The position numbers were made by a program, and so were the translations under genes. This document shows, one piece after another, positions 41,247-43,511 of a DNA stretch of 44,071 nt. The notes below the pieces were generated by a model that ran no database searches, had not been told where the DNA came from, and saw only the letters and a program-made list of their open reading frames with translations. Each line of letters opens with the position of its first letter. Position 1 is the first letter of the stretch. This DNA is from Escherichia phage vB_EcoS-UDS3lw, in sequence record PQ658967.1; one strand, 5' to 3'.

Positions 41247-43511
41247 ATGAGCTTAATTAAATTCGCTGTAACACGACCCGCTAAAAAAGGCGAAAAAGCC
41301 AGGGCGGAAAACTTCCAGATGACTACCGAAGAGTTTTTCGAATTTATCAATGACGCGAAAGAAATATCGTCGGTGCATATCAACAAAACGGAAGATAAAG
41401 CCGAGTATGCGCGCCGCAAGCGTAAGGCCGATGGCATTGTGGCTTATACCAGTGACGGCTTACGTCGCAAGACCAGCGCGGTGGACCGCTCGATCCTGTT
41501 CTTCGATATCGACCGTACCGACACCCGCACCTTACGCCGCTGCCGTAAGGCGTTCATCGACGCGGGACTGGAGCACGTCTTCCACACCACTACCGGCGAC
41601 CGCCACCCACTGAAAGGCGGCACGCGTTGCGCTCGTTTCCTGGTGCTCACTGACAAGCCTGTACCCGCTGAAGACCTGGGACGCGTCCAGTATGCACTAT
41701 TACACCAACTGGGCCTGTCAGATGTGGACTTCGACGATTGCACGAAAGACACAAACCGCCTTATGTACCTGCCTCACCAGCAATCGGTTGTTAAGTGTCA
41801 CTACGGCAAACGTGCCCGCGTCCGTCGTCTGCTTCGCCTGGCTGATAAGCTGGGAGTGGAAAAAGCGGAAGTACGCCGCGAACTAACCCAGGGCGATGAT
41901 GGCGTGGCAGACGGCATTCTGGACTGGTGCTTCCAGGCAGGATTCGAGGAGTTATCTTCCGGTCGCGGTTATGAAGTGCCGTGCCCGAACGAACATCTGC
42001 ACAGCGGCGAAGGGTCGACGGCTATCATGGTCAAGGATGGCGAGATCCGTTTCAAGTGTATGCACACCGGCAACGAGTGTTGCTCGGAACTGAATAGACA
42101 CCAGCACCTGGCGCTGCGTCTTATCGGGATCCCGGACCACCTGAACGTCGAGCCACACAACATGTCCCGTAAGCAAATCGCCGCCATCCTTCCGGGGCTG
42201 GACGACGAGGAAGTCGAATCCTTATATGAACATATTGTTGATGCGGTTGGCGACGGCGAAGAATACGGCGTGTGCACCGATGCGGATCTGGATAACGAGC
42301 CGGTTGCGCTGTTCAGCAAGCACGACCCGATCATCGAGGGGTTGATTAACTTTAAATCGACCTGGTATATGGCGGGCGAGTCGAACATCGGTAAATCGTT
42401 CTACGTGCTGGGCCAAATGGGTGCGGTTGCCGCGGGGATTCCGTTCGGCGGTGCGAAGGTCGTCCAGTCTCATTGCTTCTATTTCGACGCGGAAGGTGGC
42501 GAAGCCTCCAACCAGCGTAAGGAAGCACTGCAGATCAAATATGAGCACGACCTGGACAAGCTGCACATTATCGACCTGCAATCACGCGGCTGGGATATCA
42601 CCAGCAAGTCTGGCTTGCGCGAAGTTATCAGCTTTATCAATCGCACAGCTAACGGGGAGCCGGTTGGCCTGGTGGCGTTCGACTCACTCAACCAGACGGT
42701 TGCGTTGCGGTCCGCCGATGCCAAACCGTTCGACGAGAACAACGCCAGCGATATGGGTGAAGTGGTCAAAGCGCTGAAGGCCATCGCGGAAAATACCGGC
42801 GGCAGTGCGGGCGTCATCCACCACCCGGCGAAGGGTGCAAACGGCAGCAGATCCCCCCGCGGGTCCGGCGCGCTGCATGGTGCTGTCGATTCTGCGTTCT
42901 TCCTGGAACAGCCGGACGACAACCAGCCAGGTCAACTCAACCTGTATCATGAGAAGGCACGTAACGGCATCAAGCAAGCGCCGCGCGGATTCGTTCTGCT
43001 CAAGTGCAAGGTTAAGGTTGATCTCCGCAAGTCCGAAGCGTTCGAAGCACACCAGTCCACCAGCACCGGGCCAGACTTCGGCGACGTGGTTGCCGGTTGG
43101 GACGTCAAGCCGATTGCCTCCACGCCACGCGACGAGACTCTCTACCTCGTACCGGTTGCCCTGGCACCGTTCGCCATTGAACAGGCGAAGTCCGCGGGCA
43201 AGGCAGCAGTTAAGGAAGAGAACGCCGCAGGACCGCGCAACGAAAAAGAGAAAGTGCTTTATGCGGCACTGGAAAAACTGATGGAAGATAACCCGGACCA
43301 TACCGGATTCAGTAAATCGGCAATTGTCCGCCAGGCTGGGCTTGCGAAAGGTGGCACATCGACGAAGGCAATAGACGATATGGTGGAGCGCGGCGTGCTA
43401 GGTTTTTATACCGATCCGCACACCGGGGCCATCTATGGGTCGTCGAATATCGTCATTAAAACGAATATACCCATCACGCTTTCGGCGACCGACGACGACT
43501 TAAAAGATTAA
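41247..43511 (+). CDS. PrimPol-type primase fused to helicase ATPase
   Basis: N-terminal FFDIDRTD and HTTTGDRH (primase-polymerase-like), Cys-rich zinc region, C-terminal Walker A GESNIGKS and Walker B LVAFDSLN. Confidence 0.65.
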   Translation: MSLIKFAVTRPAKKGEKARAENFQMTTEEFFEFINDAKEISSVHINKTEDKAEYARRKRKADGIVAYTSDGLRRKTSAVDRSILFFDIDRTDTRTLRRCRKAFIDAGLEHVFHTTTGDRHPLKGGTRCARFLVLTDKPVPAEDLGRVQYALLHQLGLSDVDFDDCTKDTNRLMYLPHQQSVVKCHYGKRARVRRLLRLADKLGVEKAEVRRELTQGDDGVADGILDWCFQAGFEELSSGRGYEVPCPNEHLHSGEGSTAIMVKDGEIRFKCMHTGNECCSELNRHQHLALRLIGIPDHLNVEPHNMSRKQIAAILPGLDDEEVESLYEHIVDAVGDGEEYGVCTDADLDNEPVALFSKHDPIIEGLINFKSTWYMAGESNIGKSFYVLGQMGAVAAGIPFGGAKVVQSHCFYFDAEGGEASNQRKEALQIKYEHDLDKLHIIDLQSRGWDITSKSGLREVISFINRTANGEPVGLVAFDSLNQTVALRSADAKPFDENNASDMGEVVKALKAIAENTGGSAGVIHHPAKGANGSRSPRGSGALHGAVDSAFFLEQPDDNQPGQLNLYHEKARNGIKQAPRGFVLLKCKVKVDLRKSEAFEAHQSTSTGPDFGDVVAGWDVKPIASTPRDETLYLVPVALAPFAIEQAKSAGKAAVKEENAAGPRNEKEKVLYAALEKLMEDNPDHTGFSKSAIVRQAGLAKGGTSTKAIDDMVERGVLGFYTDPHTGAIYGSSNIVIKTNIPITLSATDDDLKD

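Follow-up and report, generated by a model that had tools for sequence, protein, structure and literature searches.

Escherichia phage vB_EcoS-UDS3lw (sequence record PQ658967.1; the window analysed here is its whole stretch of 44,071 nucleotides) carries at 41247-43511, on the plus strand, an open reading frame (ORF) of 754 amino acids that starts with ATG 10 bp after a small helix-turn-helix (HTH) gene. The encoded protein is a phage replicative primase-helicase, with an AEP primase, a zinc module, a RepA-like superfamily 4 (SF4) helicase and a winged-helix-like domain in one chain. Its stop codon is followed by a non-coding module of short iterons and a hairpin, here called array B, and from the comparison of sequences we propose, with moderate confidence, that this module is the phage replication origin and the primase-helicase its initiator. 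Nothing is overturned by the proposal: the role of the gene is already annotated in GenBank (it is labelled "replicative helicase-primase" in more than 150 relatives and has a full-length match to phrog_3228), the repeat regions are already noted there in the 2009 record of Sodalis phage SO-1 ("region A … sequence similarity with region B"), and the logic is shared with the staphylococcal pathogenicity islands (SaPIs), P4 and pRN1. What the comparison yields is a precise hypothesis that is cheap to test: it names a core of 160 bp, the iterons and the protein domain concerned, and the sister clades offer natural variants of specificity. The Dhillonviruses, to which the phage belongs, rank with the coliphages that are isolated most often, the region being matched by more than 150 GenBank genomes, and are used in phage-host screens.

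The repeat array behind the gene

An iteron array beginning 160 bp after the gene had been claimed in the initial annotation, and this is borne out, as the first iteron, ACGGGACA, is found at 43672, 160 nt past the stop codon of the primase-helicase, and the excess of repeats is far above chance. The sequence GCGGGACA occurs 20 times in the genome against 2.1 expected, a number that none of 100 shuffles reached, and 16 of the 20 occurrences fall in two arrays. The parts of array B and its flanks are:

43517-43621, plus strand: three direct copies of CGCATTGGTTGCC (43520, 43574 and 43609); 8 matches with at most two mismatches against 1.7 expected
43625-43672, no strand: AT-rich stretch of 48 bp, 75% A+T, which holds GAATAGTTATGCA (43640-43652) and abuts the iterons on their upstream side
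43672-43773, plus strand: canonical iteron set, (A/G)CGGGACA, direct at 43672, 43684, 43700 and 43710, inverted at 43725, direct at 43758 and 43766
43780-43824, no strand: imperfect hairpin or palindrome of about 50 nt (CAGTCT…GACGGGGG-TCAACGG-CCCCCCTCGTC…), with a full copy at 43907-43955
43824-43950, plus strand: second copy of a 127-bp tandem duplication, which adds four direct iterons, one inverted iteron and a hairpin
43981-43990, plus strand: CACGGCAGCA, with the motif ACGGCA(G/A)C, found 3' of the hairpin in most lineages examined

The first four direct iterons are spaced 12, 16 and 10 nt apart, and the inverted one at 43725 closes the palindrome GGGGCGGGAC…GTCCCGCCCC. Another copy of CGCATTGGTTGCC, inverted, lies at 44020-44032, so that copies of this element bracket the array; relatives carry two or three of the 54-bp-spaced units. 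The hairpin folds as DNA with a z-score of -3.9 and as RNA with -29.4 kcal/mol and a z-score of -2.7.

The two units of the tandem duplication, 43697-43823 and 43824-43950, are 100% identical. All other Dhillonvirus copies with the region intact (27 of 27) have a single unit, with four to seven and usually six CGGGACA, and GenBank relatives align about 125 bp shorter here. The duplication could be a real recent event or an effect of the assembly, and since the other copies have one unit, much of the apparent length of the array is a feature of this isolate, or of its assembly, alone. ORFs reading across the repeats (43578-43823 and 43738-43950 on the plus strand here, 5282-5461 in the PhiSTP1 locus, 9041-9328 in Pubbukkers) are annotated as hypothetical in several relatives; they show no conservation between lineages and are probably spurious.

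Conservation of the module across lineages

The comparison covered some 70 loci in which the gene is present in full or as its C-terminal part. In Dhillonvirus and about ten further lineages, whose proteins are 44-69% identical, the stop codon is directly followed by 340-650 bp without a credible gene, and the lineages that have the downstream module include Cornellvirus, Hafnia phage TS33 and uncultured contigs. The order of the parts is the same throughout: a TTGG(T/C)TGC element, GAATAGTTATGC(A), three or four short repeats in direct orientation, one inverted, a further two and a long hairpin, and at the end, in the lineages other than Dhillonvirus, an element of the TTATTCAT type, and then ACGGCA(G/A)C. 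The short repeat itself changes by clade and can be CGGGACA, CGGACAA, TCCGACA, AGGGAT(A), GGGGAGA, TTGCGAG or TGTGCGGAA. For instance, the array of Cornellvirus PhiSTP1 is built of GGGGAGA with spacings of 12 and 16 and then an inverted copy, and GGGGAGA is confined to that array.

The hairpin is also kept in structure with changed stems (CAGTCT/AGACTG, ATCATCTA/TAGATGAT, ATCCTC/GAGGAT and GGACGGAC/GTCCGTCC; folding z-scores -2.7 to -5.1). These hairpins were folded one by one; RNAalifold on a MAFFT alignment of 12 lineages recovered just four pairs, because the hairpin sequences are too divergent to align. The elements GAATAGTTATGCA and CACGGCAGCA (the latter with the core ACGGCA(G/A)C) keep their relative positions even in lineages at 44% protein identity, which is unusual for non-coding DNA, and they could be recognition sites for a host factor, a repressor or the primase. 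The sequence GTGAATAGT is also seen inside promoter spacers of a Kagunavirus (locus L008, near 890 and 4460-4520).

The HTH gene upstream has a different history. It is of the HTH_23 type in Dhillonvirus and a Cro-like HTH_3 in the Cornellvirus-like and other lineages, with no detectable similarity between the two. Since this gene has been swapped for a non-homologous one, the primase-helicase is the only conserved neighbour of the array, and because the module follows the gene across lineages while the HTH gene is replaced, the array is tied to the primase-helicase. The HTH protein was considered as a reader of the iterons and set aside, as the layout of the array persists although the protein is replaced by an unrelated one.

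Domains of the primase-helicase

According to the initial annotation the protein combines a PrimPol-like N-terminal region, a zinc segment and a C-terminal Walker A/B ATPase. The three domains are real, but the ATPase is central and not C-terminal: about 150 residues come after it, and the last 110 or so of these make up the winged-helix-like domain and an acidic tail. Invariant residues were read from an alignment of 26 homologues with 45-87% identity, and a full-length AlphaFold model (pLDDT 71) was used together with a separate model of the N-terminal region. The domains, all on the plus strand, are:

41247-41861, plus strand: AEP (PrimPol-like) domain, residues 1-205, with the AEP catalytic fold
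41901-42251, plus strand: Cys/His zinc module and helical linker, residues 219-335
42309-43046, plus strand: RepA-like RecA-fold (SF4) helicase core, residues 355-600
43176-43466, plus strand: winged-helix-like C-terminal domain with a variable GG loop, residues 644-740, the candidate reader of the iterons
43479-43508, plus strand: acidic C-terminal tail (…TDDDLKD), with D751 and L752 invariant and low pLDDT

The N-terminal domain has an invariant DxD motif, D87-x-D89, at the end of a beta-strand. T115, D118 and D163 are invariant as well and H120 is conserved in at least 90% of the homologues, with AEP motifs II and III assigned by pattern only. Neither residues 1-208 nor residues 209-350 gave a Pfam match even at E up to 10, including any AEP family, so that membership of the AEP group stands at the level of the fold only; there is a weak match to PHROG primase families (phrog_9765, 3.9e-6). 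In the zinc module, C246, H252, C271, H273, C279, H285 and H287 are invariant and form the motifs CPNx3H (246-252), CxH (271-273), C279 and HQH (285-287). No Pfam zinc-finger family matched the module. A beta-hairpin is predicted at 258-271 (strands 258-263 and 266-271), and the predicted module thus has four conserved Cys/His ligands on a beta-hairpin, as expected of a primase zinc module.

The helicase core is the part with the clearest relatives. The only Pfam family recognised in the protein is AAA_25 (PF13481), at residues 357-531, with an E-value of 2.4e-19 and 70.2 bits against a cut-off of 27, and the Walker A motif GESNIGKS (377-384), D479 and HHPAK (525-529) are all invariant. Foldseek with the full-length model returned RecA-fold ATPases only, among which RepA of RSF1010 had the highest target TM-score (0.63, E 8.7e-8), and gave no information on either end domain. 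A Walker A motif, a Walker B motif and a fold of the RepA type are accordingly all present in the core. Sequence searches of PDB with the whole protein and with the profile of 26 sequences gave just weak matches to RepA (E 0.45 and 0.077).

The model predicts helices at 644-658, 666-681, 690-697 and 707-714 and strands at 718-720 and 735-737 in the C-terminal domain, and because of this succession of four helices and two strands we call residues 644-737 winged-helix-like. The domain is kept in every full-length homologue. The loop between its second and third helix is the most variable part of the whole protein, is specific for each clade and tracks the type of repeat: KGGT-STKAI goes with CGGGACA, GGGNxRRR with CGGACAA, DGGR-RRPA with TCCGACA, AGG(G/N)-RRPAL with AGGGAT, KGGD-RYxxLK with GGGGAGA and TSGN-YKKVL with TTGCGAG. 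After this domain comes the acidic tail, which is probably disordered, judging from the model.

A resemblance of the same region to TALE-like proteins was also followed up. The segment GFSKSAIVRQAGLAKGGTSTKAIDDM (43308-43400, residues 688-718), with the loop region …GFSxxxIVKxAGxxGG…, is locally like one repeat of BurrH (…GFSQADIVKIAGNxGGAQALQAV…). A profile of the C-terminal domain gave E 1e-25 with BurrH, a value inflated by about 20 near-identical repeats that each add the same 20-residue match, and we rejected it as homology, since the best single repeat scores 12.4 bits with an i-Evalue of 1.2, which is the level of chance.

A second array in the tail operon

The other array rich in iterons, array A, lies far from the primase-helicase gene:

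15958-16331, plus strand: array A, a paralogous module that fills the 374-bp gap from the stop of the tail-chaperone gene (15957) to the start of the tape-measure gene (16332)

Positions 16095-16268 are 87% identical to array B over 140-167 bp and form the only dispersed repeat of the genome. In array A, six iterons and the hairpin, of which this copy is at 16215-16263, are preceded by a pair of additional 78-bp units (15962-16115), both of which contain a GCGGGACGTCCCGC palindrome; the four direct iterons share the spacing of array B (12, 16 and 10). It is found in at least 146 Dhillonvirus records and is absent from Cornellvirus PhiSTP1 and Hafnia phage TS33. As PhiSTP1 is without a second array and TS33 without a gap before the tape-measure gene, array B is the ancestral one and array A a copy specific for Dhillonvirus.

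A putative origin and its initiator

The layout of array B would suit an origin. The AT-rich stretch is followed by four direct iterons of 8 bp, which recur roughly once per helical turn, then by a GC-rich palindrome that iterons form, and finally by another two iterons and the imperfect hairpin of about 50 nt. Initiation could then proceed in a few steps. The GCGGGACA iterons would be bound by the C-terminal domain, a ring of subunits would form at the adjacent AT-rich or hairpin DNA with no need for a separate loader, the AEP domain would prime on the exposed strand, and the family A polymerase and the single-stranded DNA-binding protein (SSB) of the phage would take over. Array A might serve as a second origin or as a helper site that acts in cis. 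We found no paper in the literature that maps a Dhillonvirus origin, and the GC skew profile mirrors the orientation of the genes only and holds no origin signal.

A more elaborate hypothesis can be formulated, which we hold to be quite improbable in its full form: that the fused AEP, zinc and SF4 protein is a self-loading initiator which reads iterons of 7-8 bp through a helix-GG-loop-helix that has been retuned by clade, and that the Dhillonviruses have added to this an origin of two sites, array B helped by array A, in the manner of ori/crr of P4 or oriL/oriR of SPP1.

The primase-helicase had been named the natural candidate initiator for the array. The gene and the array are truly linked, and across deep lineages, which supports this reading in part. 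On the other side, the array has a twin in the tail operon, and there is a clade that has no array within 1.5 kb of the gene. Several observations weigh against the proposed origin and its reader. The term winged helix itself rests on predicted secondary structure with a pLDDT of about 70-84, and the domain has no Pfam match and no significant sequence match in PDB. The match of loop and repeat is confounded by descent, because the correlation follows the clades. The loop PGGG-RRPAM occurs with AGGGAT in contig L016 but with AGGGAGA in L100, and Dhillonvirus and the L017 clade have nearly identical iterons and very different loops. The clade without the array (uncultured, L041-L046/L049/L097) has the full protein including the C-terminal domain (PGGG-RRPALKAL), and its gene is followed by two plain terminators of GC hairpin and T-run. 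In Kagunavirus and Jerseyvirus relatives (33-35% identity) the primase-helicase gene is followed by a repressor gene that points leftward, and not by an array. A tail operon, where the second copy of the array sits, is an odd place for an origin, and parts of the arrays have been marked as terminators by the annotators of HK578 and CS16.

Alternative explanations

These terminators, which were annotated within both array A and array B, lead to an explanation that we consider unlikely but far from negligible, that the arrays are modules of transcription control. The palindrome and the hairpin would act as RNA terminators or attenuators, array B at the boundary of early and late genes and array A in the tail operon, the 8-bp repeats would bind a phage regulator of read-through, and the primase-helicase would merely be the last gene of the early operon. 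The hairpin does fold well as RNA, with the energy and z-score given above, and a T-rich run follows the GC stem in several lineages, e.g. CCCCCCTTTCTCC, but the Dhillonvirus hairpin has no T-run after it and a scan of 43400-44071 with a terminator consensus found none. The plain terminators of the clade without the array stand at the same position, all the repeats are oriented with transcription, and the next gene after array B has its own sigma-70-like promoter, TTGCAT-N17-TATATT at 45-73; placed after the tail-chaperone gene and before the tape-measure gene, however, a terminator would cut an operon that normally is tight. An origin and a terminator can also share the same DNA, as has been reported for pRN1. 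The constancy of the iterons speaks against regulation too, as their sequence and layout are nearly constant although the adjacent HTH regulator has been replaced by an unrelated one.

The distribution of another motif bears on the same question. The sequence ATTGGTTGCA has 21 sites in the genome, mostly intergenic and many of them paired (41, 605, 3104/3127, 10362/10376, 26468, 29363/29375, 31030/31047, 33998, 37809/37825, 40711 and others). Several of them overlap sigma-70-like promoters, and at 41-75 one copy provides the TTGCAT of the -35 box and the other overlaps the TATATT of the -10 box. The motif is probably a phage operator or promoter element, and the variant TGTTGGCTG takes the same places in Guernseyvirinae relatives. 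The marker that is spread over the genome is thus a different sequence from the iterons, which are gathered in the two arrays, and this favours an origin over a general regulatory site.

It is rather improbable, in our opinion, that the arrays are origins whose iterons are read by another protein of the phage or the host, in the way of RepC in RSF1010, with the primase-helicase only recruited to them. The resemblance of the helicase and primase domains to RepA and RepB' of RSF1010, where the iterons are bound by a third protein (PMC4234260), would fit such an arrangement, as would the lack of a recognisable DNA-binding family match in the C-terminal domain, the imperfect pairing of loop and iteron, which are not one-to-one, and the presence nearby of several small early proteins of unassigned function. 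Against it, no RepC-like or other DNA-binding gene stays beside the array across the lineages (no RepC profile was run against the genome), and the extra C-terminal domain of the primase-helicase is kept in all full-length homologues.

It is very improbable that the arrays serve packaging, as a pac site or an enhancer of it, act as a partition-like site, or are selfish repeats that spread without a role in replication, even though they are the only dispersed repeat of the genome, clearly copied once (array A is found only in Dhillonvirus) and in this isolate duplicated further in tandem, and even though several GenBank records or assemblies start or stop at the arrays, as contigs that end at repeats are a normal outcome of an assembler. 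Packaging is headful in these phages (PMC9022532), so the array is not a cos site; they are virulent, it is the convention to let their records start at the small terminase gene, and from array B it is about 4.6 kb downstream, past the record end, to the terminase genes (4472-6507), and we therefore rejected a cos or pac function. The spacers drift, whereas the iterons and the hairpin are conserved, and the position is fixed beside one gene in deep lineages, which argues for a functional array and not a parasite.

Genome and gene context

The genome is that of a complete Dhillonvirus (HK578/SO-1-like), and the point at which the record is opened is arbitrary. Over 3.5 kb, the surroundings of the primase-helicase gene show 94% identity to Escherichia phages PTXU06, Pubbukkers and welsh and match 184 phage records, nearly all of them Dhillonvirus (HK578/SO-1-like siphophages of about 44 kb). 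Rightward transcription runs from 40907 across the record end through small genes, lysis genes, the terminase genes and structural genes to about 28.1 kb, and a leftward operon spans 40686 down to 28136. Both operons and the genes assigned to them were confirmed, so the initial annotation was right in having the primase-helicase transcribed rightward with the HTH gene, away from the leftward operon of polymerase, SSB and nuclease. To call it separated from the rest of the replication module was an overstatement, as only a divergent promoter gap of 220 bp (40687-40906) parts the operons in what is an ordinary early region; the gap contains sigma-70-like promoter matches, and its layout is kept in all relatives. 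The neighbouring genes are:

40907-41236, plus strand: small HTH protein of 109 residues, first gene of the rightward early operon (Pfam HTH_23 2.3e-7, Sigma70_r4_2 2.1e-6)
38078-39508, leftward operon: DUF2800/PD-(D/E)XK nuclease
36970-37773, leftward operon: Enc34-type SSB
34453-36744, leftward operon: family A DNA polymerase, 763 residues
32077-33591, leftward operon: SNF2 helicase

Scans of the whole genome with Rfam (gathering thresholds) and for tRNA genes gave no matches. The DNA polymerase of the close relative Pubbukkers, at 1-2145 of its locus, is annotated as containing an intein, and the one found here appears to be without the insert. Tandem repeats that stay in frame are seen in three genes: 87 bp repeated twice (40223-40390) in the gene for an acidic protein of 229 residues (39997-40686), 54 bp repeated 2.3 times (37062-37187) in the C-terminal part of the SSB gene, and 42 bp repeated 2.9 times (27028-27148) in a gene for 538 residues (26493-28109).

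Comparison with known systems

A functional parallel that is established by experiment is found in the SaPIs, where Rep/PriRep5 binds 6-12 short iterons (5-6 bp) directly downstream of its own gene by means of a C-terminal winged helix (PMC9371898). The primase is there fused or adjacent to a helicase with the C-terminal winged helix, an AT-rich region is present and there is no separate loader (PMC9371898). Here as well, short iterons with an AT-rich segment are found directly downstream of the gene, in a position that is kept in about 12 lineages whose proteins are 44-99% identical; they are 7-8 bp long, six in number (ten in this isolate), and the AT-rich stretch adjoins them. The SaPI proteins differ in having helicases of superfamilies that translocate 3'-5' and not the prokaryotic SF4 (PMC9371898). 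The helicase core of the phage protein is of the RecA-fold RepA/SF4 type and is not homologous to that of SaPI or P4. The SaPI iterons are oppositely oriented and flank a central AT-rich region, whereas here they are mostly direct and on one side of it. We detected no sequence homology with the SaPI proteins, and the resemblance is one of function and architecture and not of family membership.

The satellite phage P4 contains iterons in two separate places, ori and crr, the latter made up of two direct repeats of about 120 bp, and its helicase belongs to SF3. The two regions parallel array B with array A, and the pair of repeats parallels the 127-bp duplication, although the duplication is specific for this isolate and not a feature of the family. 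The alpha protein of P4 unites a primase, a helicase and a C-terminal winged helix that binds the short repeats of the origin in one polypeptide, with a primase of the Toprim/DnaG type (PMC4234260); the corresponding parts here are AEP and SF4.

The Sulfolobus plasmid pRN1 has a small HTH repressor gene followed by a gene for a protein with AEP prim-pol, helicase and winged helix, and just downstream of this gene, orf904, an essential stem-loop that is conserved in structure and not in sequence (PMC4234260). The same succession of an HTH gene, a gene for AEP, helicase and winged-helix-like domains and a hairpin conserved in structure only is seen in the phage. The helicase of pRN1 is of SF3 and there are no iterons, in contrast to the SF4 motor and the prominent iterons here.

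The iterons of the IncQ plasmid RSF1010 are 20 bp long. Its oriV combines iterons, which are read by RepC, with hairpins (ssiA/ssiB) that are recognised by the primase (PMC4234260). The helicase core studied here is closest in fold to RepA of this plasmid, by the TM-score and the AAA_25 match given above, but RSF1010 divides between three separate proteins (RepA, RepB' and RepC) what here is joined in one chain. We saw no RepC homologue beside the array, with the limit on that search stated above.

Gp4 of T7 shares with the phage protein the combination of zinc module, primase and SF4 helicase in one chain; gp4 also ends in an acidic tail, through which it contacts the polymerase. The conserved acidic tail found here (DxDLxD, 43479-43508) resembles the polymerase-docking tails of T7 gp4 and gp2.5. 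Gp4 has a Toprim primase, though, and neither a DNA-binding C-terminal domain nor an iteron origin. The Bacillus phage SPP1 has two homologous origins, oriL and oriR, with repeated boxes and an AT-rich segment, one at the gene of the initiator G38P and the other at a great distance among late genes, which may be compared with the positions of array B and array A; unlike the situation proposed here, G38P is a separate initiator, and the helicase G40P and its loader are separate proteins too.

Taken by analogy with these systems, it is plausible that the primase-helicase is a version of the self-loading initiator-helicase theme with AEP, zinc, SF4 and winged-helix-like parts. If true, this would add an example with AEP and SF4 to the self-loading initiator-helicases, and the sister clades would provide a set of matched pairs of origin and initiator.

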